A DNA stretch of 20,315 nucleotides, from NCBI GenBank assembly GCA_030614005.1, contig JAUWKS010000058.1:1-20315 (forward strand), given 5' to 3'. A program made the translations under genes and the position numbers. The number at the start of each line of letters is the position of its first letter. The stretch's first letter is position 1. The notes under the pieces were generated by a model. That model was not told the origin of the DNA and ran no database searches. It worked only from the letters and a program-made list of their open reading frames with translations. Source of the stretch: Candidatus Heimdallarchaeota archaeon. GTDB lineage: Archaea > Asgardarchaeota > Heimdallarchaeia > JABLTI01. This document shows, piece by piece, positions 3,263 to 19,076 of the stretch.

Positions 3263-4138
3263 TCAGTGATGACTTTCATCTGTTTTCAATTCTGTTTGCT
3301 CAGAAGCTTTGTGGGTGTTATCCTCAGCAATAGACTCAACAACTGTACCTTCGCTTGTAATTATAGGACTTTTATAACCAGGAATAACGGCTAAGTAGGC
3401 ATCTTCTAACGAAGAAGTATTTGTATCTTGCATAATGCTTTTCGGAGTTCCATCTGCGATAATTACCCCTTGATGAATAATTGCAACCCGATCACAAACA
3501 TCTTCTACCAAAGACAATCGATGTGATGAAATAATGATCGTTTTTTCTTTTTCTCGAGATAGATATTTAATGAAATCTTTTACCATTTTAGCTGCAGAAG
3601 GATCCAAGCTAGCCAATGGTTCATCCATAAGAAGGATATCCGGATCGTGAATAAGAGAACAAATAATAGATAATTTTTGTTTCATTCCTCGAGAGAGTTT
3701 CTCGATAAGCTCATCTTTCTTCTCAAAGATTCCAAACATTCGGAATAATTCTATAGATCTATTTCTAGAATTTTCTGCTGAAACGCCAAATAATCCTCCA
3801 ATGAATTCCGAAAGTTCTATTGGAGTTAATCTTCCAATAAGGCTGCCTTCTTCTGGCAAATAACCTGTATGTACTTTTGCCCAATTAAGATTATCACTTA
3901 TTCTTTTCCCCAGGATAAAAGCTTCTCCGGATGTTGGATTAATCATTCCTTTAAGAATTCTAATCGAAGTGGTTTTTCCAGCGCCATTTGGACCTAATAA
4001 GCCAAATATCTCTCCAGGTTTTACTTCAAATGAAACCCCTGCAAGTGCGATGGTTGTACCATACACTTTTGATACGTTAGAAATTCGTATTGCATTCTTG
4101 GTTTCTTCAACAGGAGTTGATTGTGTTTCATCTGACAT
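3263..4138 (-). CDS. ABC transporter ATP-binding subunit (ABC-2/CcmA-like exporter)
   Basis: Walker A GPNGAGKTT, signature LSRGMKQK, Walker B LLMDEP, H-loop SSH. Confidence 0.95.
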   Translation of the reverse strand: MSDETQSTPVEETKNAIRISNVSKVYGTTIALAGVSFEVKPGEIFGLLGPNGAGKTTSIRILKGMINPTSGEAFILGKRISDNLNWAKVHTGYLPEEGSLIGRLTPIELSEFIGGLFGVSAENSRNRSIELFRMFGIFEKKDELIEKLSRGMKQKLSIICSLIHDPDILLMDEPLASLDPSAAKMVKDFIKYLSREKEKTIIISSHRLSLVEDVCDRVAIIHQGVIIADGTPKSIMQDTNTSSLEDAYLAVIPGYKSPIITSEGTVVESIAEDNTHKASEQTELKTDESHH

Positions 4139-4238
4139 CTACAGAATTCTCCCAGAGTAGTAATAATCAATATCTCGATTGATGTTCATGGAAATAAAAT
4201 AATTTGCATAGTAATAAGAATAGACTAGCAATATAATT

Positions 4239-4400
4239 ATGACATCGTTTGTATACAAACGTTTACAAAGCAAGCTTTGTTGGCTGTGCCACACAACCTC
4301 TATCCCCTATCCTTAAGAGGGATTCGGGGAATGCTTTTTGTGCAATGTTTCTTGCAGCATTGATATCAGCGTTCAGGACGACATGACATTTCTTACAGAT
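4239..4400 (-). ncRNA. Predicted omegaRNA scaffold overlapping the tnpB 3' end and the element right end; 5' limit unknown
   Basis: Position follows known TnpB biology. Visible stems: ACAAAG-cttg-CTTTGT (4265-4280) and CGTTTGTATACAAACG (4246-4261). Confidence 0.45.
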
Positions 4401-5456
4401 AAACAGACCACGATACTTTCGGTTTTTACGGGAACGGTGCGAACAGCAAGAACAAGTTTGAGAGGTGTACTCTTCAGTGACGAGAATAACTTCGATTCCT
4501 TGTTCCTCTGCCTTGTACTGGAGCATCTGTAAGAGCTTATGGAACGGCACGGAGGCAAACTTCTGGTTGCTCCTCCTGCCCATACGTATATTTTGCTTCC
4601 AGTTCTTATTGCGACCGATAACTAGTGAGGAAATGTTATTATCAACACAATGTTGAATAATCACTCTTGATGCTTTATGTAAGAGGTCATGGAGATGATT
4701 ATACCGCCAACGCATCAATTGTTGTTTCCTCTTGCTGGTCGTAAGCCCTTGCTTATTTAGCTGCTTCTGTAGTTTCGCTTTTTGCTTATTGTAGAATTGG
4801 TTTATTGACTTAACAACTCCGCCCTTGATGATCAAACCATCTGACGTGGCTACGAGGTTGTTAACACCAAAATCCAGTCCAAGAACCTTTTGTTTTTCTT
4901 TTATGTTTATTGCTGTTACTTCTTCTTCATAAACTAACTCCAAAATGAATTTATCATATTGCGGTTTTAAGCGAACGATAGCGTGATTTGTATCGGTGAC
5001 AGGTAACTTTTCGATAGGTACTGCAGGGAAACCTTCTTTCATAAGTCGCTCTACTACCCTCACGTTCCCGTCTCTAATTCTTACTTGTTGCCCTGACCAG
5101 ACGACGATATATTTACCATTTTTTGGGAGGTATCCTGGTATCCTCGGTTCCCCTAGATATTTTTCTGGATTTATTTGCCAATCCTTTTTTGCTTCTTTGT
5201 ACCCTTCCCAAGTTGCATCTACCATCCTAAGAAGTTGTTGTGGTGTGTGGCTTCCAGCTCGTTCTTGGATTTTCAGGTATTCCTCTTTTTCTCTCAAAAT
5301 GTTCCATATTGTATAATACCGCAGTATCTTGCCTGTCTCGAAGAACTCTTGGCGAACTAGGTAAGTGGCTGAATTGTATAGGTTCTTTGCTAGAAATGTC
5401 AGCTCCTCAAATAGCTTTGTAGTTGGCAGCTGTACTCTGACGACTCTTTTCACCAT
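4263..5456 (-). CDS. tnpB: IS200/IS605-family TnpB RNA-guided endonuclease with rearranged RuvC-II
   Basis: N-terminal KNLYN motif, RuvC-I LGLDFGVNNL, RuvC-II VIGRNKNWKQ with downstream TEEYTSQ, zinc finger CSCC...CKKC, RuvC-III NADINAARNI; 397 aa. Confidence 0.95.
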   Translation of the reverse strand: MVKRVVRVQLPTTKLFEELTFLAKNLYNSATYLVRQEFFETGKILRYYTIWNILREKEEYLKIQERAGSHTPQQLLRMVDATWEGYKEAKKDWQINPEKYLGEPRIPGYLPKNGKYIVVWSGQQVRIRDGNVRVVERLMKEGFPAVPIEKLPVTDTNHAIVRLKPQYDKFILELVYEEEVTAINIKEKQKVLGLDFGVNNLVATSDGLIIKGGVVKSINQFYNKQKAKLQKQLNKQGLTTSKRKQQLMRWRYNHLHDLLHKASRVIIQHCVDNNISSLVIGRNKNWKQNIRMGRRSNQKFASVPFHKLLQMLQYKAEEQGIEVILVTEEYTSQTCSCCSHRSRKNRKYRGLFICKKCHVVLNADINAARNIAQKAFPESLLRIGDRGCVAQPTKLAL

Positions 5457-5628
5457 TTTTCTTCAATAATATATTTATACAGCTCATTATATATTAATTC
5501 TCTAAGGAGAATGCCGAAAGTATTCGAAAGATGTCTAAGTGAATAGTTAACTAAATAACTAAACGTACAGCTTTTCAAAGAGGTATTTAATAAGTGTAAA
5601 ACAAACTCATACCTAGGAGGGCATTACT

Positions 5629-7254
5629 ATAGCTGCTCATCTCCATTGGTCAACGGATCCACTATTACTTGATAGAGAACCAACGAAATATAATGACTGG
5701 GAAACAGCGAACTTAATGATCGTAAGAGAAGGAATCAACGCAGTCATTAATGATAATCTCACATTCAAGAATCTCTATGGGATTATGGTCAGAAAGGTCG
5801 ATTTTGTTCGGAAGAAACGTTCTGATCGTATCATCGCACGGTTTCCCTTTCTCATTTTGAATAACGAGCTTCGAACTAAAATTCAAGAACGAACCCTTCT
5901 TATTGCTGAAGTGGCTCAAAATTACTTTTATCGCTCAATAAACAAGTCGATCACAGCTTGGCGGGATATTATTTGTAAGTACCTTGAACGGGGGTCGTTG
6001 CCTTATCCACTTTTTCGTTGTGCGCAGGAAATTATTCCTGATTTATCCTTGCTTGTAAATGGTTCTGGTAGCATTCCTTTTATGAGTGCTCGAGGAGAAG
6101 CCTTCACTTTTCCAACGAAAGTTTCCAACCAACTAGCCTATATTTGTGGTGTTTGTAACGGTGATGGCAATCTACGTGATTATTGGATCATTATTGCTGA
6201 TGAAACAAAAGCACATATAGAATTTGTAAAGAAATTACTTAATAACTTGTTTTCCAAAGAAGGAAAAATCATGAAAACCGGAGGGGCATGGATAGTAAAA
6301 CTAAACCTTCTCTGGGCAACTCGTCTTTTTAACTTTCTAACTAACCAAGCTATTAATGAACCAAAGTATGATTCATTGGGTGAACCTGTTATTTTTCAAA
6401 GAATAGAGGAACCTTTCCGAAGTCTCTATTGGAGAGGAGTCTTTGATGCAGATGGATCATTTAAGAATCAAATAGCATTTAGCTCAATGAGTGGAAAATA
6501 TTGTATAGACTTTCAAAATTTTTTGACTGAAAAAACAATACATTCTAAAATTTTTCAAATGAAAAATGGTGGTTATATGTTAACAATTCCTGCTAAAGAA
6601 AAGGTTGCTTTTGCTACAATAGTTGGGGTTTCAAATTGTAAAAAAAGAAAGGATTTCATTAATTTTCTAAATACATCCTATAGTTATAAGGTATTTAAAG
6701 GTTTTAACCAAAAAGCGATTACAAAAAATAATTACTTGAACTTCACATTATTGCCAAATATGCAGGTTTTAGGATTGGAGACTTTTTTCCAAAAAAATGA
6801 AATTCATAAAACAAAAGTCATTACAAATAAAGAACTAAATAGATACAAAAGAGGATTTGGTATTACAATAAAAAAACTCAAGCAACACTTACAACTTGAT
6901 TGTGTTGAAGAATTTATGATGTTTCTTTACAAATTTAGAGAGAAAATAAAATTTAGATCATCAAACTCAGTAATAATAAAACTAAAATTAAAACCTACTG
7001 AGACGTTAGAAGAAATTATGTTTGCACTAACACCTACTATTAGAGGAGCAACTTTCAGAGAAGAATCAAATATTCCGTTAAAGACAATTAGTAATTTTTT
7101 TGACTTGAAAATAAATGATAATAAAATCCTTCACAGATTACTCCCACAGTATTTAGTTACATTTGGTGTATATCAAGAAATTTCAACAAATAATTTTAAC
7201 AAAGAAACATTATTCGAAAAATGGGAAAAAGATTTGTTTTTAGAAGAAAAATAG
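5629..7254 (+). CDS. Free-standing double-motif LAGLIDADG (DOD-type) endonuclease-like protein. Possible ATA start at 5629; first ATG at 5716.
   Basis: Motif 1 LAYICGVCNGDG and motif 2 LYWRGVFDADG with typical DOD spacing. Frame is open from 5617; AGGAGG at 5615-5620 lies 8 nt before ATA 5629. Confidence 0.8.
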   Translation: MAAHLHWSTDPLLLDREPTKYNDWETANLMIVREGINAVINDNLTFKNLYGIMVRKVDFVRKKRSDRIIARFPFLILNNELRTKIQERTLLIAEVAQNYFYRSINKSITAWRDIICKYLERGSLPYPLFRCAQEIIPDLSLLVNGSGSIPFMSARGEAFTFPTKVSNQLAYICGVCNGDGNLRDYWIIIADETKAHIEFVKKLLNNLFSKEGKIMKTGGAWIVKLNLLWATRLFNFLTNQAINEPKYDSLGEPVIFQRIEEPFRSLYWRGVFDADGSFKNQIAFSSMSGKYCIDFQNFLTEKTIHSKIFQMKNGGYMLTIPAKEKVAFATIVGVSNCKKRKDFINFLNTSYSYKVFKGFNQKAITKNNYLNFTLLPNMQVLGLETFFQKNEIHKTKVITNKELNRYKRGFGITIKKLKQHLQLDCVEEFMMFLYKFREKIKFRSSNSVIIKLKLKPTETLEEIMFALTPTIRGATFREESNIPLKTISNFFDLKINDNKILHRLLPQYLVTFGVYQEISTNNFNKETLFEKWEKDLFLEEK

Positions 7255-7448
7255 AAATAGGTTAACAATCTCAATAAACTTATCAGAGGGAGCCCAGCGG
7301 AAAAATAGAGGTTGGAAAAGGAATAAATGTATGTTTAGCTAATTCTCTCTTAATCGTTTTATCCATGTAGTTTTAGGAAAGGCGGTAATAACAAAAGGAG
7401 GTTGGAGAAAATTCCCTTCACAGGTGTTTTTTGTGGTTGTTTTTTCTC

Positions 7449-7507
7449 TCGCCCATTTTTTTGTGATGAGTTCTCTTTTTTCTTTTTTTCGCCCAATTTT
7501 TTGTGAT
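7449..7507 (+). repeat. Two 19-bp direct repeats with a 40-bp period
   Basis: TCGCCCATTTTTTTGTGAT (7449-7467) and TCGCCCAATTTTTTGTGAT (7489-7507), one mismatch. Confidence 0.85.
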
Positions 7508-7620
7508 ATGTTTTCACTATTATTTCTTGAAAAAACTATTGTTTCTGATTTTTGACGACTTTAAAATGATGAAGATCAAAATTTTATGCTAAAATATTAA
7601 AATTTAAGATTAAAATCCAT

Positions 7621-7634
7621 TTTTTAGCTATTAA
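7621..7634 (+). promoter_or_regulatory. TTTTTAGCTATTAA, left copy of a 14-bp inverted repeat (promoter/operator or element end)
   Basis: Exact reverse complement of 12035-12048; ends 29 nt before the ATG at 7664. Confidence 0.6.
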
Positions 7635-7663
7635 AAAAGAAAACTAACAATAAATAACTAATT

Positions 7664-8410
7664 ATGACAGCTACTAAACGACTTAATCTTAGCAAAACAG
7701 AATTTACTGTTTATCTTGAGTGCCCCCTAAAATTCTACTTATTAAAACAACAAAACCAGCACATGAAAGAGGGACCTCGAGGGGGAAGAGATCATTCCAA
7801 TTATCCCTCACATTTCAAAAAGGGTTTGAAAGAACATCGCAAATTACGAGCATTCTACAAAAATTATGCTGATGATATCATCAACCAAAACGCCCCACCA
7901 GATAAAGTAACAGTACAACCAATTCTACGAAAATTCTGGGAACAAGAAGTTCATCGGCATCAAGTTGACCCTGACAATTGGTATCCCCTAGCTCTTGAAC
8001 TCTACCTGGCAACAGAAACTATGCGAGGACAGATCGATCGAGTGGACCCACTATCGAACAATGAATGCTGCATCGTTGAGTTCAAGTCTTCAGAAAGGAG
8101 AAGTGGTTTTCTCTACCAGGAACTGTTATTTTATGCTCTTTTAGCATCAGAGAGTCAGGAATTCAAGCAAACCTATGGCAGAACGGTTTCTCAAGTTGGC
8201 TGCTACTTTTATGACTCTGGTGAATGGTTCTCTAAAAAAGTTACACCAGAGGACTTGTCTGACTTTAAACTCACTCTCAAGAGTTATCAAGCTGAAATGC
8301 TCACTGGTAATTTAATTCCTAGGGTAGACTGTCACCTTCAAATAGACAAATGTAGCTATGCGGTCATTTGCACTAAAGTTCCTGATATAATGCTAAAGAA
8401 ACATGAGTAA
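7664..8410 (+). CDS. cas4: Cas4-like / AddB-type PD-(D/E)XK nuclease with predicted Fe-S cluster
   Basis: LS..E...Y.ECP (C20), G...H (H58), RGQID (D125), IVEFK (E139, K141), ELLFY, and C-terminal C223, C230, C236. Confidence 0.8.
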   Translation: MTATKRLNLSKTEFTVYLECPLKFYLLKQQNQHMKEGPRGGRDHSNYPSHFKKGLKEHRKLRAFYKNYADDIINQNAPPDKVTVQPILRKFWEQEVHRHQVDPDNWYPLALELYLATETMRGQIDRVDPLSNNECCIVEFKSSERRSGFLYQELLFYALLASESQEFKQTYGRTVSQVGCYFYDSGEWFSKKVTPEDLSDFKLTLKSYQAEMLTGNLIPRVDCHLQIDKCSYAVICTKVPDIMLKKHE

Positions 8411-8442
8411 TGGAGTTCTGTATTTAAAAATGCATTCTTACT

Positions 8443-9126
8443 CTACTCTTCTTTTTGAACAATTCCTATTGTCATCAAGATATTGCTCTTTATCAATGAT
8501 GCTAGGTTTTCTTTAATAACGAATTCATTATCAGAAAATGATTCCCCACTAGATTCTTTTATGATTTCATGGTAGAACTGCTTTATCTCTTGTTGTGTCG
8601 CTTTTCGGAAAACTTGTTTTTCACAGCTCTTTTGTTCTTTATTTACCTCAGAGACTATAGATTCATATTCTTCACTCATTGGGCTGATTTTTTCTGAGAA
8701 TTTCACAATCTTCTCTTCCATATCAGTTTCATTCTCTCCCATTCTGATGCTCTCTTTAACTCTCTTTACAAAAGGATCATCCAGATTGAGTAAGTATTTT
8801 CTTTTCTTGTACAATAAAATTCCTTCTTTAACTAATTGTTGCATTCTTTGAGATGTACGATTTTTTTTCCAAGGGAGTAGCACCTCGAGTTCTTTTTCTC
8901 CCTTTGGTTCAATTACACCAAATTCTACAAATTGCTTGAGAAGCAGTTTGGTTATCTTATAGGTCATTATGAAATCTCTTTTGCATAAAATAACTATCAA
9001 TTCAAAAATAGGTTTTGAAAAGCTCTCATCCTTGGTTGTTTTGAATATTATCTCTTCCTCGAGTTCAAGCGACAACTCCTCAAGAGGAATCAACTCCGGA
9101 TTTTTATATGGTGGATCGTTTTTCAT
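8443..9126 (-). CDS. Hypothetical protein, probable winged-helix DNA-binding domain
   Basis: 227 aa; 'TSQRMQQLVKEGILLYKKRKYLLN' resembles a recognition helix plus wing; GGTGA SD at 9134-9138; 17 nt after the upstream stop. Confidence 0.6.
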   Translation of the reverse strand: MKNDPPYKNPELIPLEELSLELEEEIIFKTTKDESFSKPIFELIVILCKRDFIMTYKITKLLLKQFVEFGVIEPKGEKELEVLLPWKKNRTSQRMQQLVKEGILLYKKRKYLLNLDDPFVKRVKESIRMGENETDMEEKIVKFSEKISPMSEEYESIVSEVNKEQKSCEKQVFRKATQQEIKQFYHEIIKESSGESFSDNEFVIKENLASLIKSNILMTIGIVQKEE

Positions 9127-9143
9127 TATTAGGTCACCATTTT

Positions 9144-11132
9144 CTAATGCTTGAAATCGAACTCCTCTAGTGATGAACCGAATCGTAGTCTAAAAGGAGC
9201 AAAATACTCCCCCGCTTCATTGACAATTTCCCTTAAAGAACTAGATATTGTTGTTAGTTGTTCCCTTGTGAGGGCATTCAATTTGTTCTCAGCTGCAATT
9301 GCCCATGGAGCATACTTCTTTCCCTCGAGAGTGATGATCGTGTCTTCTTTCCAAACGATGTCTTCCAACAGTCTGTTCATGCTAATAATATTATAATTCA
9401 ATGCTTTACTGATCGTTGTTTCTTGCTCTTTCCCATTTATAACCGACCGTATTTTCAATTCACTAATCTTTTGATAATTAGATTCCAACTCCTCATATGC
9501 TTGCGATTGTTCTTTGATATAAAACACAGGTATTCTTTTTCTCAATCTTTCCGAGAAAATCATCTCCGGTTTTATTCGCTCTTCTACTATCGTTCTCAAT
9601 GTTTCGGGTATTGTTCCTAGCTTTGGCCCCTCTTCATTGTCTAATTTCAACCCAATCTCTCCTCCATGGGTTTTTCTATGGCAGATTCCTTCCAGACCTT
9701 TCCAAGGGAACCCTTGCTCTATACACTTCTCTAAATACAAGTCAGAGATCATTCTAAATGAGCCATTAATGACTGTATTTCCATTGGAATAACTTTGAAA
9801 AAATCCCCAGGGTTTAAATGGATCATTTTCAAGATGTCTTGATCTCGAACGATTAGGAATTTCAAATCCTTGTTTTTCAATGATCTCTTTAATAACTGCC
9901 CACATGTAATTTGCTGCTTGCCCATCAATAGTATTCCAGATATTGCTAGTTAATAGCTGCTTGTCCTTCCTCATCTCCTGTATTTTAGTTATTAATTCTG
10001 TAGTTTTCTCTTGAGCTAAAAACAGCAATCTTTTGTTTGCAAGGTCGCTTATCTCATTAAGAACTGCTAGCCTATTCCAAAGCAATTCTATCGCATAATT
10101 AGTGCTCAATACACCAGTTTTTTGCAATAAACGCGTTGCGCCTATTTGTTGCTTTGTTGGTTTCGCGCTCACAGGTTGCTCTTTTGCCAAAATAATGGTC
10201 ATATCAGTATAATGAGCAGCTAGTTTTTCTTGTAAGATATTGAAATATTCATCTTTTCTTACGACCAAGTATTTTAATTGATTATAATAAGCAAAAAGAT
10301 TGAATGAAGTGAAAGCATTGGTTTCATCATGTAAATCATCTTCTTCATGAAAATCGTGAAGTGAGAGTCCATAATTTACACTTGAATAACCTCTATCTGG
10401 ATCTTCTCCAGTAAACAATCTATAATTCCTTGAGTATTCTCTAAATTTCTCTTTGGAAGCTTTCACATAATATTTCTCTTCTGTTTGATCAAAAAAAAGT
10501 TTGTAAAAAGAACCGCAATAATAGCAAGATGTTAATGAACTGCCTATTAATGGCAATACTCCCCACCCAAACTGAGGTATTGGTTTTTTGCAGAAATAAC
10601 ATCTGTAGGCTTTAAGAGGAACTTGAGGACTATGCAAGTAATTGTCATTCACATCATTCTCTTTCCACCACATAATTGAATCGTAGATTTCTTCTGCAAA
10701 TTCTTGAATGGAATGAAATGTTCTGATTGGGTTTTTTGTTCGAGGAATTCTCCATTTACAAGCAGTTAGTTGTGGATGTATTTTTTTCATCAACCGTTGT
10801 TCATCAACTTTATAGCCTTTCATTGCAAGATCCTGATAGAACGTGCAACTGCTGTTGAACCTGTTCCAATTCTCACAATTTTTACAAATCCATTCTAGAT
10901 AGTCTGGCCAAGACATATCATATGGGATATAGAATCTGATTTTTTTATTAAACCACATAAATAACCTCGATTTGACTTTCTTGCTTCTTCGAAGCTTCTC
11001 TAAAAAATCTGAAGTTGTACTTTCAGGCAGATTAATAATCTGAGCTATTTCCATTTTAGTTGCTGGAAAGAGGGTATTGATTCTTGAAGAAAACTGTTCA
11101 AGTAATACTGAATTTTCTTTGGTTAGATCCAA
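9144..11132 (-). CDS. cas1: Highly divergent Cas1-family integrase fused to an N-terminal wHTH and two Cys clusters
   Basis: Cas1 C-domain motifs in order: TIDGQAANYMW (cf. GIEG.AA..Y[FW]), NRSR, NTVINGSFRMI (cf. NALLNYGY.L), GFPWKGLEGICH (cf. GL.PYLGFLH), GLKLDNEE (cf. SLALDLMEE), and terminal YAPW/FAPFRLR (cf. Y.PF). Confidence 0.8.
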   Translation of the reverse strand: MDLTKENSVLLEQFSSRINTLFPATKMEIAQIINLPESTTSDFLEKLRRSKKVKSRLFMWFNKKIRFYIPYDMSWPDYLEWICKNCENWNRFNSSCTFYQDLAMKGYKVDEQRLMKKIHPQLTACKWRIPRTKNPIRTFHSIQEFAEEIYDSIMWWKENDVNDNYLHSPQVPLKAYRCYFCKKPIPQFGWGVLPLIGSSLTSCYYCGSFYKLFFDQTEEKYYVKASKEKFREYSRNYRLFTGEDPDRGYSSVNYGLSLHDFHEEDDLHDETNAFTSFNLFAYYNQLKYLVVRKDEYFNILQEKLAAHYTDMTIILAKEQPVSAKPTKQQIGATRLLQKTGVLSTNYAIELLWNRLAVLNEISDLANKRLLFLAQEKTTELITKIQEMRKDKQLLTSNIWNTIDGQAANYMWAVIKEIIEKQGFEIPNRSRSRHLENDPFKPWGFFQSYSNGNTVINGSFRMISDLYLEKCIEQGFPWKGLEGICHRKTHGGEIGLKLDNEEGPKLGTIPETLRTIVEERIKPEMIFSERLRKRIPVFYIKEQSQAYEELESNYQKISELKIRSVINGKEQETTISKALNYNIISMNRLLEDIVWKEDTIITLEGKKYAPWAIAAENKLNALTREQLTTISSSLREIVNEAGEYFAPFRLRFGSSLEEFDFKH

Positions 11133-11252
11133 AGGCTGAGCTAGTAGAGCTCGTTCTCTTATGAAAGTCAGAACATTGTATTAATTTTAGCTGAGAAAGC
11201 AACCATCTTTTCTTTTCTATTCTGAGACGAAACCAAATAATTATTCTCCATT

Positions 11253-11984
11253 TCATTTTTTGTTTAATTTTGCTTGAGTTATATATCGCTGTGAATGCAA
11301 ATTGAGGTTTATTCCAACTGATTGTACTTCTGGAATTACAGAAGTAATATTTTCTAGTGTTTCAGAAATTATTACCATGTAGTCAGAAGCATCTAAAAGA
11401 ACCAGAGCACTATTATCAGCTTGAATCAAATCGTCAAAGATTGCTTCAGCTATTTTTTTGGAAATCTCTTTTGCATTATTTAATAAGAATTGAGCATCAC
11501 TCTCTACCAATAAATGATCAATAATCGTCAATGCTTCTTTTTGTTTCTCTTCTTGAGTATTCTTTGATTTGAGAAGCTTAGTTTGAGAGAAATTTTTATT
11601 GGCCTCTTGAGTAAAACTCTTGCTTATCAGAAAAAGCAGATCAATAATATCATTATTTATAGTATTTATTTCAACGCTTGTTTTATTCTTTACCTTCTCA
11701 AGTGTGATAAAATTCAATGACTGTAATTCTTTAAGAGCTGGATTAATTGAATTAAGGTGAGTGTTTAGTTTCTCTGCTAACGCTTTCTGACTTTCTAAGA
11801 TTATCTTCTCACTTGATGTTAATTTCATCCATAAAAGATAGAGCAGTAGTGCTTGTGAAGTTTTGTTTATTCGCTTTACTGTGATTATCTTGTTGGTATT
11901 GTTTAATATATCTGCAAAAAGCCCAATTTTATCTTCTCTCTTTTGCCTATCAATGTTTTTCTGATTAGTAATTATTTTGCTCAC
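11253..11984 (-). CDS. Winged-helix-turn-helix protein (putative regulator) with helical C-terminal region
   Basis: 'SQKALAEKLNTHLNSINPALKELQSLNFITLEK' is a clear wHTH; GTG start; 243 aa. Confidence 0.75.
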   Translation of the reverse strand: MSKIITNQKNIDRQKREDKIGLFADILNNTNKIITVKRINKTSQALLLYLLWMKLTSSEKIILESQKALAEKLNTHLNSINPALKELQSLNFITLEKVKNKTSVEINTINNDIIDLLFLISKSFTQEANKNFSQTKLLKSKNTQEEKQKEALTIIDHLLVESDAQFLLNNAKEISKKIAEAIFDDLIQADNSALVLLDASDYMVIISETLENITSVIPEVQSVGINLNLHSQRYITQAKLNKK

Positions 11985-12034
11985 CTTATCTTTTGTGAAG
12001 TATCTGCAATAGTACTATCGATGACTTTTGCTTA

Positions 12035-12048
12035 TTAATAGCTAAAAA
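12035..12048 (-). promoter_or_regulatory. TTTTTAGCTATTAA (minus strand), right copy of the 14-bp inverted repeat
   Basis: Plus strand reads TTAATAGCTAAAAA; ends 50 nt before the GTG at 11984. Confidence 0.6.
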
Positions 12049-12515
12049 TTTGTCAAAATGCGAATTAGCACAAATGATATGATGAGTTAAAAGTTACTTG
12101 CTCGATAAGGAATATTGAACTTTCACAATTATTTTTTTTAGACAAAGACAATAAAGCCGTTCCTTTTTTAGTCAAATATTCCTTGTCCTAATTGTCAATA
12201 AAAAATCAATAGTTATTAACCTTAAATTGAGGTCATTTACAAGTGATGTTCCTTCTCCTTTTAGGAGGAATTTCTTCTGTTAATCGTTCAACAAATTCGA
12301 TGAATATCTCTTCTTTTTCTATTCTTCAAATGTTTTTTTCTTGCCTTAATTGTCTATAAAAAGAAACAACTCTTCTACTCTTTATTTGCTGTTTTAGATA
12401 TCCTAAAGATGAGTTTGAACCACATAGAACAACAAATTATTGCATACAAAACTACTTATAAGGAATTGTTGCAATGGAAAATCAGACTTATTCAAATATC
12501 TATTGAGGAATACGT

Positions 12516-13928
12516 ATGGCAGCTGTAGGAAAAATTAAACCCCAGCCAGCAAACAAAGGAGCAATCTTAGGATACTCCATAACATCACTAATATTTGTGG
12601 GTATAGGCGTTTTATGTTTCATCCTCTTACTAGGATTAACACCTGAAGGTTCAACTGAAACAGTTGGAGAAATAATTTCTCTCCTTCTTGATGACTTGAT
12701 GGTAATAATAGTAGGAACTGGAGCAACTATTGCACAATATTGGTGGGTTGTACTTCTTATTGTTGTAGGTTTAACAGCAATCGGATTTTTAGTTGGTTGG
12801 TTACTATTAGTTTTAGTGTCAAAATTTGGGCATATTATTGTTTATGCTGGATGTGCTTTTTACATCATAGGAGCAATTGTAATGATTCCGTTTAATCTAA
12901 CGGCTGCGATTGGACCGCTTATACTCGCTGGGGTGTTGATTCTTGGAATGATTACTAATTTCAGGAAGTTCAAACGAGCAGGCGAATTTATGAAATTTAC
13001 CGGTAGAGTTGTTCTTGCAGAAAAAGGTATGATTATAGCTCCACTTTTTGTGACTTTAGTATCTATTATTAACTTAATAACAATGGGTGCAATATTTGCA
13101 TTTTTAGTACTGTCTTTCCAAGAGTCAACAGCATGGTTAGGATATTTATTAGGATCTTTAGCTTCATTTCTGCAATTAGTTATTTACTATGGTATGTTTT
13201 ATGTTGCAGAAGCAATTAACACAACCTATGCTTATGAGTGGTATCGTAAAAGAGATCCTGATATGAAATTCTGTGTGAAAAATGTTGCAGGAGTTTTTGG
13301 ACCCATCTTAACATTTGGAATAGTCACTGCATTAGTGTCTTGGATTCAACAAATGCTCAGGAATTCTGCTGCAAGAACAAGTAAACAAGGTAATGTTGCA
13401 GGTGTTATATTTGCAATTTTGGCTCGGATGGTTGCTAGCCTTATGGGAATTATCTTCAAATATCTTACTTACTTTACACTTCCAGCAATAGCTGTCGAAG
13501 GTAGAAAATTCAAAGATGGTGTAACGAGAAGCTTTGCTTTGTTGAAAAAATACTATATGGATGTTCTTATTCGTGAAACTGGTGTAGCCAGAGGAATGTC
13601 TTTCATACAAGTAATTGCCTTTTTCATCTATGGTGTAATTGGAGCTATCATTGGGCTGATCCTCAAAGGTGCTTTAGGTACTGATATCACTTGGACAGTG
13701 GCAATGCTGGTTACAATTCTTCCAATGTTGATATTTGGTAATGTTCCAACATTCTTTATCTTTAGACCAATGAAGACAGCATATCTAACATTTATTTTCG
13801 CTTACGCTCAAGATGAAGAAACAAATCATAGATTACCATCCAGGATGCCCGCAGAATTACGTGGAGACATTAAGCAAGCAAGCAAAACACTTGATTCTAG
13901 CAAATCAATAGCAAAGCTTGGAATGTAG
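12516..13928 (+). CDS. Choline transporter-like (CTL/SLC44/Pns1-type) multi-TM protein
   Basis: About 10 TM segments. 'FGPILTFGIVTAL' (cf. FGSICFGSLIVA) and 'YLTYFTLPAIAVEGRKFKDGVTRSFALL' (cf. FN.YAY..IAIYG..F..AAK.AF.LL). GAGG SD present. Confidence 0.7.
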   Translation: MAAVGKIKPQPANKGAILGYSITSLIFVGIGVLCFILLLGLTPEGSTETVGEIISLLLDDLMVIIVGTGATIAQYWWVVLLIVVGLTAIGFLVGWLLLVLVSKFGHIIVYAGCAFYIIGAIVMIPFNLTAAIGPLILAGVLILGMITNFRKFKRAGEFMKFTGRVVLAEKGMIIAPLFVTLVSIINLITMGAIFAFLVLSFQESTAWLGYLLGSLASFLQLVIYYGMFYVAEAINTTYAYEWYRKRDPDMKFCVKNVAGVFGPILTFGIVTALVSWIQQMLRNSAARTSKQGNVAGVIFAILARMVASLMGIIFKYLTYFTLPAIAVEGRKFKDGVTRSFALLKKYYMDVLIRETGVARGMSFIQVIAFFIYGVIGAIIGLILKGALGTDITWTVAMLVTILPMLIFGNVPTFFIFRPMKTAYLTFIFAYAQDEETNHRLPSRMPAELRGDIKQASKTLDSSKSIAKLGM

Positions 13929-18641: not shown

Positions 18642-19076
18642 TCAGCTTTTTGCTATGCATTCCTCCACTCTAGGAATGGATTCATTGCAATGACACTTCT
18701 GAGGGTTATTTAACTCTCTGCTAATTTGATCAATCATATTGCATGATATGACACTTGCAATTGCATAACTCTCTTTTTTTGCCTCTCGATGAGACAAGTT
18801 GAGAGTATTCATAAAGAACATTATCAATAAATGAAAATGTCTTTGTTTGTGAGCTGCTTGCTGTTGCCCTTTCTGCGTTAAAGAAATTGGACCATATTTT
18901 TGCCAAGTAATTAATTCATCATCCACCAATCTTTTAATTATTGAATTAATTGATGAATGAGGGATGGCAGTATTTTCTTTCTCCAATTCTTTCTTTAAAT
19001 CACCTATTCGTATTGGACGTAGCCACGAATATAAGAAATCTAACAGCTTTTCTTCCAAATCTATTCTGCGTTTCAA
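18642..19076 (-). CDS. DtxR/MntR-family regulator with degenerate canonical metal ligands
   Basis: wHTH followed by YGPISLTQKG and a dimerisation region ending NPQKCHCNESIP (cf. P..CPHG.PIP); located in a metal-uptake operon; TTG start. Confidence 0.85.
   Translation of the reverse strand: MKRRIDLEEKLLDFLYSWLRPIRIGDLKKELEKENTAIPHSSINSIIKRLVDDELITWQKYGPISLTQKGQQQAAHKQRHFHLLIMFFMNTLNLSHREAKKESYAIASVISCNMIDQISRELNNPQKCHCNESIPRVEECIAKS

Follow-up and report, generated by a model that had tools for sequence, protein, structure and literature searches.

An aCas1 gene module in a probable TnpB-bounded mobile insertion of a Heimdallarchaeota genome

The subject of this study is a module of four genes, encoding a Cas4-like nuclease, a 227-aa winged helix-turn-helix (wHTH) protein, a diverged Cas1-like protein and a putative 243-aa DNA-binding protein, in a 20,315-nucleotide stretch of DNA (the window) from Candidatus Heimdallarchaeota archaeon. 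The window is contig JAUWKS010000058.1 of assembly GCA_030614005.1, called C78 below; the host genome comprises 3.62 Mb in 126 contigs and is 90% complete. The original prediction, made from the sequence of the window, had taken the 4.4 kb bracketed by an inverted repeat (7621-12048) for a candidate new mobile or defence system. Our results showed that the module very probably sits in a mobile insertion, and that the unit exceeds the four genes, including the LAGLIDADG and TnpB genes beside them (4263-7254). We are also highly confident that the Cas1-like protein belongs to the aCas1 family. As a whole, the locus is best explained as a copy of the aCas1 module in a TnpB-bounded insertion with aCas1 acting as an integrase, an explanation to which we give an even chance of being correct.

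Comparison of gene order around the module, a check proposed with the original prediction, revealed an empty site and placed the locus within a mobile insertion. In the two closest congeners (G078:C138 and G072:C21, named as genome and contig), the flanking ABC-ATPase and choline-transporter-like (CTL) genes are adjacent, with approximately 140 bp between them; the CTL proteins of these genomes are 91% and 86% identical to that of the window. Base-by-base comparison of the junctions placed an insert of 8,219 bp, containing the TnpB gene, the LAGLIDADG gene and the four-gene module, between ...AATTAT and AAGGAATT.... The sequence TTAT occurs at 4237-4240 and 12456-12459, is single copy in the empty site, and leaves the placement of the insert ambiguous within those 4 nt. 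The window element thus has a 4-bp TTAT duplication with an ambiguity of 0-4 bp. Similarity over any longer target duplication was no better than chance, no terminal inverted repeats above chance were found at its ends, and no further copies of those ends were found in the host genome. A 12-nt register taken from a sister element gave 8 of 12 matches (p ~0.005, our own post hoc estimate) and was not relied on.

Read along the TnpB strand, the order is TTAT, left end, cargo, tnpB, right end and flank, an arrangement in which the guide of an omegaRNA would match the empty site. Eight TnpB copies from four genomes (73-81% identical) are alike up to a conserved right-end terminus, ...GATGTC(AT) at 4239-4246, which comes after a 16-nt palindrome at 4246-4261; beyond the terminus they diverge. 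The point at which they stop being alike is the left border of the insertion in window coordinates. Instead of the 4.4-kb stretch between the inverted-repeat arms, the mobile unit is therefore 8.2 kb long, and its conserved end is that of TnpB. The omegaRNA-like region matched Rfam sot0042, a family of sense-overlapping tnpB transcripts, with E 2.4e-4, below the gathering score; at the gathering score Rfam gave no match anywhere in the window.

Metagenome contigs from three cold-seep runs of one study bridged the left junction, and contigs from two bridged the right junction. One contig from another study (run X1) matched the window from 4239 on and carried unrelated sequence before it, which places the same right end at a different site in another population. 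Contigs of four metagenome runs in Logan contained no joint that skips the element and no circle junction, although contigs cannot show absence. No RNA run was listed among the sequencing runs that contain this sequence. The features of the insertion and its surroundings are as follows.

4241-12459, minus strand: whole insertion, 8,219 bp (empty site in G078:C138 and G072:C21)
4232-4336, minus strand: omegaRNA-like region and conserved right end of the TnpB element (eight-copy alignment; weak Rfam match)
4263-5456, minus strand: TnpB, 397 aa (Pfam OrfB_IS605 and Cas12f1-like_TNB; PADLOC Cas12f, E 3e-36)
5456-5593, no strand: intergenic repeat common to other TnpB/LAGLIDADG junctions of the genome (blastn of the window against its own genome)
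5716-7254, plus strand: LAGLIDADG-domain protein, 512 aa (Pfam LAGLIDADG_3; tblastn census; embedding look-alikes)
7276-7530, plus strand: conserved non-coding element containing a pair of 18-nt direct repeats (at 7450 and 7490, 40 nt apart)
7621-7643, no strand: left arm of the 23-nt inverted repeat, directly upstream of the cas4-like start
7664-8410, plus strand: Cas4-like PD-(D/E)XK nuclease with four Cys (Pfam, PADLOC, homolog alignment)
8443-9126, minus strand: 227-aa winged-helix protein, 17 nt after the aCas1 gene (predicted fold)
9144-11132, minus strand: aCas1, 662 aa, wHTH plus two Cys clusters plus Cas1 fold (fold comparison, alignments)
11253-11984, minus strand: putative DNA-binding protein of 243 aa, HTH_36/RepA_N-like, encoded by the first gene of the operon (weak hidden Markov model and embedding matches)
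12026-12048, no strand: right arm of the 23-nt inverted repeat, upstream of the 243-aa gene
12139-12459, no strand: left-end-proximal segment, absent from the paralogous copy on contig C122; terminal motif GTATGCAATAAT (minus strand), similar to the left end of a sister element
Left of the insertion: cysS, then a 554-aa protein without an assigned function
3263-4138, minus strand: ABC ATPase, last gene left of TnpB
12516-13928, plus strand: CTL gene, right of the module and followed by a PhzF gene

Within the left-end-proximal segment, the non-coding stretch 12217-12381 matches intergenic DNA of G075:C50 (L063 6900-7067) at 82% identity; the matching DNA lies downstream of a gene of 1055 aa.

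To find further empty sites, we searched with the sequence that flanks the right end; this delimited three sister elements of the same TnpB family in related genomes.

G071:C137, 11.4 kb: TnpB, LAGLIDADG protein, a module with aCas1 of the 670-aa type and three more genes; site empty in three genomes; 13-bp duplication, 12 of 13 identical
G074:C235, 12.25 kb: TnpB, LAGLIDADG protein and another Cas1-like gene; site empty in two genomes; 5-bp duplication
G074:C212 (L060 602-3854), 3.25 kb: TnpB and a 541-aa LAGLIDADG protein only; site empty in three congeners; imperfect duplication of ~9 bp

These elements are truly mobile, and their common core is TnpB plus the LAGLIDADG gene. In every case the duplication opens with AT, immediately behind GATG(T/C)C. 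The window element and C235 have a left-end motif in common, GTAT(A/G)CAA(A)TAAT; as it was found in those two elements only, no family-wide left-end consensus could be defined. The larger TnpB-LAGLIDADG elements carry different aCas1 subfamilies, and the TnpB family that is 73-81% identical adjoins four of them; the pairing of TnpB with aCas1 recurs in G074 and G071, and in the window the two genes lie 3.7 kb apart within one insertion. Peel-and-paste transposition of the IS200/IS605 type makes no target duplication. The window element is compatible with such an insertion, without duplication and 3' of a short motif (TTAT); the true duplications of the sister elements, above all the clear 13-bp one, do not fit peel-and-paste and point towards an enzyme making staggered joins. 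After its LAGLIDADG gene, C212 carries two CGAAAGTCCGA repeats ~40 nt apart, echoing the repeat pair of the window.

The 662-aa Cas1-like protein had no match in Pfam or NCBIfam and a weak match to Cas1 in PADLOC (E 0.003). Sequence and profile searches of PDB retrieved no Cas1; only comparison of folds did so. An AlphaFold model was built with 13 homologs as input, and its C-terminal half has predicted local distance difference test (pLDDT) values mostly >85. The top 50 Foldseek matches to this model were all Cas1 (best E 5e-7). In VIA comparisons it aligned with 4n06_B at Z 21.0 (root-mean-square deviation 3.3 A over 258 aligned residues) and with casposase 6opm_A at Z 20.7, and 44 Cas1 or casposase entries preceded the first other fold. 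The model thus has the two-domain fold of Cas1 with a conserved D-H-D/E site. In E. coli numbering the catalytic residues of Cas1 are E141/H208/D221. In the window protein D403, H485 and D498/E501, invariant in the 13 homologs, fall on the Cas1 catalytic motifs in an hhalign alignment with canonical Cas1 from the same archaeal class, which pairs the D/E-G-x-A-A, H and D-x2-E motifs and is statistically weak (E 0.035); the first catalytic acid is Asp instead of Glu. The N-terminal 320 residues contain a winged helix and two invariant 4-Cys clusters, and residues 20-74 matched winged helices of TFE-alpha-type domains at Z 6-7 in VIA.

The 5' part of the aCas1 gene contains a 1-nt frameshift near 11182, which cuts off ~36 N-terminal residues. 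The unshifted open reading frame (ORF) would encode ~698 aa, as in the C122 paralogue, and a metagenome contig (run X1) with one extra C reads through the site to give ~698 aa. The frameshift may therefore be a strain variant or an assembly error; the stretch that it removes is the least conserved part of the aCas1 family.

The gene positions and spacings given in the original prediction were confirmed. The stops of the convergent Cas4-like and 227-aa genes are 32 nt apart (8411-8442), and the aCas1 stop is 17 nt from the 227-aa start, with GGTGA 8-12 nt ahead of the ATG. The 248-aa Cas4-like protein matched Pfam PDDEXK_1 (E 3e-12) and PADLOC Cas4 (E 4e-5). It contains a RecB-type D...ExK, a QxxxY-like motif and four Fe-S cysteines; C20, C223, C230, C236, D125, K141 and Y157 are invariant in 11 homologs, and the C-terminal cysteine spacing is C-x6-C-x5-C. 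The predicted structure of the 227-aa protein is a winged helix with a helical tail, and its fold matches were exclusively wHTH proteins, all weak (E 0.03-0.2). This partner of aCas1 is thus a winged helix and not the ferredoxin fold expected of Cas2. The 243-aa protein gave weak HTH_36/Crp matches in Pfam (E 0.02-0.03) and has HTH_36/RepA_N look-alikes by embedding.

Co-folding, which had been suggested as a check on the module, was run on the pair of aCas1 and the 227-aa protein, which scored 0.50, compared with 0.00 for the best of three controls. Of 80 solved complexes, 58 reached the mark used for such predictions, as did 2 of 110 mismatched pairs; only 7 of the 80 did so with a score of 0.60 or less, a range that includes both of the passing mismatches. 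Contacts agreed by at least 96% between runs, the partner had a pLDDT of at least 59, and the alignments were self-built. The prediction thus gives weak support, and no more, to binding between aCas1 and the 227-aa protein.

The aCas1 family is very small. In two large libraries it amounts to 16 clusters at the 90% identity level and, among 1.8 billion representatives, to 22 at the 50% level, and all of the named matches are from Heimdallarchaeota. Among 82 species genomes of the class, aCas1 was confined to the genus of the window: 8 of its 10 other members had it, with 1-10 copies each, and none of the 71 others did; canonical Cas1 was present in 3 of the 10 congeners and in 28 of the 82 genomes. 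Subfamilies of ~700 aa (to which the window protein belongs), 625 aa and 670 aa can be told apart, along with fusions of 1000-1300 aa. The host genome has four aCas1 copies. All four module genes, in the order wHTH, aCas1, wHTH, Cas4, were found together at 11 loci, in agreement with the expectation that the set would recur in other genomes.

The closest paralogue, on contig C122 of the host genome, is 87% identical at the DNA level over window positions 7276-12137 and 75% identical over the LAGLIDADG gene; homology starts at a breakpoint at 5576. C122 contains the same five genes followed by a MazE/AbrB-like gene and two more genes; homologs of these last two match Csm3 and the HD region of Cas10 (RAMP-HD-like). 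More distant paralogues on C67 and C9 have the same arrangement of module plus RAMP pair. The host genome has seven RAMP-pair loci, none of them on C78. Between the C78 and C122 copies the five shared genes have ratios of nonsynonymous to synonymous divergence (dN/dS) of 0.16-0.40; for the four module genes synonymous divergence (dS) is 0.31-0.55, and they have no internal stops. These values indicate purifying selection on all five genes. Judged from this alignment of the two loci, the window copy corresponds to the aCas1 half of an ARAMP-like cassette without its RAMP genes, with TnpB where C122 has the RAMP pair and the MazE-like gene. Beside the Csm3-like/RAMP pair of C67, two proteins of 1113 and 403 aa without a family match are encoded (L009 4295-8914; G000:C67 32295-36914), which may be further ARAMP components.

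The LAGLIDADG gene has a dS of 1.45 between C78 and C122, compared with 0.31-0.55 for its neighbour genes; the unit is therefore a mosaic, and the difference suggests that this gene was exchanged or homed independently. A tblastn census found at least 14 paralogous LAGLIDADG loci in the host genome. The protein of ~520 aa is the most expanded part of the cassettes, with examples at C8 4803-6092, C41 5794-7305 and C110 42931-44370, and three on C9.

Between the LAGLIDADG and cas4-like genes, the element at 7276-7530 is more conserved than synonymous sites: it is nearly identical between the paralogues, compared with a 26-39% synonymous difference, and the spacer between the repeats at 7450 and 7490 is identical in both. 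Counterparts were seen at L005 5925-6190, L010 ~18650-19050, L012 13515-13877 and L040 12460-12760, and the conserved element lies 20-280 nt past the LAGLIDADG stop. Invariant within it are the motifs TATCAGAGGG and GTTTTAGGA and a pair of CC(A/G)(A/T)TTTTTT(G/A)TGAT copies ~40 nt apart; they are kept in L010, L012 and L040 between cassettes with proteins just 45-55% identical. RNAalifold of five homologs gave no convincing structure, and the 388-nt spacer before cas4 gave no fold signal (z 0.1). The element may be a small RNA that ends at the tandem T-tracts, or it may consist of iterated protein-binding sites.

The 23-nt inverted repeat (7621-7643/12026-12048) is real, and it is kept solely in the recent paralogue and absent from other family members. 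Its 11-mer core has 15 occurrences genome-wide, compared with roughly 10 expected. Because it is conserved only in two recent paralogues, we rejected it as a transposon end or module boundary; it looks like a duplicated promoter motif.

No CRISPR array was found within the window or, by a k-mer scan, across the 126 contigs, a genome that is 90% complete and in which arrays, as they often do, may have escaped assembly. Model searches of the host genome found no canonical Cas1 and no Cas2 match over the cut-off, the PF09827 match being sub-threshold and away from the locus. Pfam found no polymerase domain in the six genes of 4241-12459, and hence no family B polymerase (PolB). The absence of an array, cas2 and PolB that had been noted for the module was thus upheld in the window and, for arrays and Cas2, extended to the genome. 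With no Cas2, array, PolB or long terminal inverted repeats, the locus belongs, as had been proposed, neither to the conventional CRISPR adaptation loci nor to the casposons.

It does not represent a new type of system, however. aCas1 homologs and ARAMP systems were reportedly described by Makarova et al. in 2020 (CRISPR J 3:156), as summarised in later reviews from the same group. In PMC8730458 and PMC12669027, ARAMPs are array-less CRISPR derivatives in Asgard archaea, with diverged Cas5/Cas7, HNH or PD-(D/E)XK nucleases and mostly a distinct Cas1; they are presumed to be array-less defence systems with nucleases, and some aCas1 may belong to new mobile elements. Altae-Tran et al. (2023) described aCas1-TnpB loci (Cas1H-Asgard-1/-2) with flanking repeats and with a hypervariable region followed by GTTCACTCA downstream of tnpB, proposed aCas1 as the transposase, and mentioned a WhiA/meganuclease-like cargo gene for related TnpB elements (PMC10691335); for the aCas1 proteins they cite Makarova et al. 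(2020). The module is a further member of these computationally known aCas1/ARAMP and aCas1-TnpB loci. It shares with ARAMP an Asgard host, the lack of an array, an extremely diverged Cas1 and a PD-(D/E)XK nuclease, and on C122, C67 and C9 a Cas7-like gene and RAMP-HD pair accompany the same module; the window copy differs in having no RAMP genes and in that the corresponding place, beyond the LAGLIDADG gene, is taken by TnpB. Like the published aCas1-TnpB loci, the window has TnpB beside an Asgard Cas1 homolog. Unlike them, it has no flanking repeats, and a search after tnpB found no hypervariable region with GTTCACTCA; the empty site shows that the sequence past the right end is plain flank.

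The element also resembles two classes of known transposons. With IS200/IS605 TnpB elements (ISDra2 and the IS1341-type solo TnpB) it shares TnpB at the right end, an omegaRNA-like region overlapping the 3' end of tnpB, a conserved right-end terminus with a subterminal palindrome, and a T-rich motif 5' of the left end (TTAT when read on the strand of TnpB), placed as a target-adjacent motif would be. It differs in its 7 kb of cargo and in having sister elements with true duplications of up to 13 bp; moreover, Y1 TnpA (PF01797) was absent from the element and the host genome, serine recombinases not having been searched for. Casposons make target duplications of 14-15 bp. With them (family 2 casposase, PDB 6OPM) the locus shares a Cas1-fold protein with an added HTH, outside CRISPR and on an archaeal mobile element, and the 13-bp duplication of one sister element is close to theirs. 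In contrast to casposons, the window element has no PolB or long terminal inverted repeats, duplications are variable (4 bp in the window), and the wHTH and Zn clusters of aCas1 are N-terminal, a different domain order.

Whether aCas1 is the integrase of its carrier element is a question on which we stand slightly below even. In this scheme aCas1, through its D403-H485-D498/E501 site, would integrate DNA together with two DNA-binding proteins, one of which probably binds aCas1, and the Cas4-like nuclease would trim the DNA ends. The most likely substrate would be the carrier element itself, with aCas1 acting in cis, or in trans for derivatives without Cas1, and the short AT-initiated target duplications would be its footprint. 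TnpB with an omegaRNA, guided by the flank directly past the right end, would cleave the unoccupied TTAT-flanked site and thereby retain or home the element. The 3.25-kb element without Cas1 would then be non-autonomous, relying on aCas1 supplied in trans. We favor aCas1 as the integrase because no other transposase is known in the elements or the genome, because four aCas1 subfamilies occur with one TnpB family, because the duplications are staggered, and because such a role has been proposed in print. More tentatively, aCas1 cassettes in general may be self-mobilising units, in which a Cas1-family integrase serves as the transposase of TnpB-guided transposons and the RNA-guided module is interchangeable, being TnpB/omegaRNA in the window and a Cas7/RAMP-HD pair in C122.

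Several observations weigh against aCas1 as the integrase. The 3.25-kb C212 element, with TnpB and LAGLIDADG only, has empty sites in three genomes, which means that aCas1 is not needed in cis. Known Cas1-family integrases have a fixed long stagger; here the duplications vary (4, 5, ~9 and 13 bp), and that of the window is only 4 bp. No terminal inverted repeats were found, and the ends of the window element are single-copy in the genome. Three of the six TnpB copies in G074 have no profile-detectable aCas1 nearby, and the window aCas1 gene itself carries the 5' frameshift. The same module occurs without TnpB in the ARAMP-like cassettes of C122, L010, L012 and L040, and may serve a RAMP effector rather than transposition. 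That no other transposase was identified in the elements or the genome carries the limit that the unknown ORFs of the larger elements were not screened for recombinases. Finally, the roles proposed for the aCas1 family are computational predictions.

These points bear on the other explanations of the locus. The idea of a minimal Cas1-mobilised element holds insofar as the module lies in a mobile insertion; movement driven by Cas1 is no more than possible, since a sister TnpB-LAGLIDADG element moves without Cas1. That element also suits an explanation in which the aCas1/Cas4/wHTH module is a passenger, either the adaptation-like or DNA-capture arm of an array-less ARAMP acting in trans with the seven RAMP pairs, or a non-programmable defence unit, with the carrier moved by its TnpB-LAGLIDADG core or another enzyme. 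We regard this as possible, though we lean against it. The linkage of the module to Csm3-like and RAMP-HD genes in C122, C67, C9, L010, L012 and L040, the seven RAMP-pair loci of the host and the purifying selection on all genes are consistent with a passenger, as is the presumed defensive role of ARAMP in PMC8730458 and PMC12669027. Yet no array, Cas2 or recognisable integration target was found in the genome, the identical spacer of the 7450/7490 repeats in both paralogues shows no turnover there, and four aCas1 subfamilies as cargo of one TnpB family would be an odd coincidence; the lack of an identified transposase, with the limit just given, argues the same way.

Two further explanations concern the state and origin of this copy. 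It could be a decaying remnant, an incomplete and non-functional duplicate of the C122 cassette that the TnpB element carries with it, as the missing RAMP pair and MazE-like gene and the frameshift near 11182 would allow. This is quite improbable, because all four genes have dN/dS of 0.16-0.40 over dS of 0.31-0.55 without internal stops, and because the frameshift, absent from the metagenome contig, affects the least conserved part of the protein. A truncated conventional CRISPR-cas locus or casposon, which the Cas1 and Cas4 folds and the canonical Cas1 genes of some congeners might bring to mind, is more improbable by far: the window protein reaches no canonical Cas1 model, searches found neither Cas2 nor an array, PolB, long terminal inverted repeats or a duplication of 14-15 bp, and the four genes recur as a set at 11 loci. 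The possibility, raised at the outset, that the locus is a truncated piece of a CRISPR-cas locus therefore applies in one sense, as the window copy is a RAMP-less partial paralogue of a larger CRISPR-derived cassette (C122, with its Cas7-like/RAMP-HD pair); for a conventional locus or a casposon it is contradicted.

CRISPR memory is rooted in Cas1 integrases, which presumably descend from casposons. To our knowledge, the Asgard aCas1 proteins are the most diverged branch of Cas1. With four elements now exactly delimited, together with their target duplications and a Cas1-less relative, the function of aCas1 becomes testable; as far as the literature could be read, they would be the first with base-exact ends, AT-initiated duplications and empty sites. 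The window locus offers genes that look intact, ends known to the base, an unoccupied target site (TTAT with its known flank) and natural relatives with and without Cas1. If aCas1 does move TnpB elements, this would be a third use of the Cas1 enzyme, after CRISPR and casposons, and would provide a compact pair of RNA-guided nuclease and integrase of possible interest for tool building.

Outside the insertion, the last 127 bases of the contig (20189-20315) have copies of 98-100% identity at or near the contig ends of C124, C79, C117 and C35, and copies of 78-84% identity in C11, C116, C50, C5 and C9. This sequence is a dispersed repeat, which probably broke the assembly.

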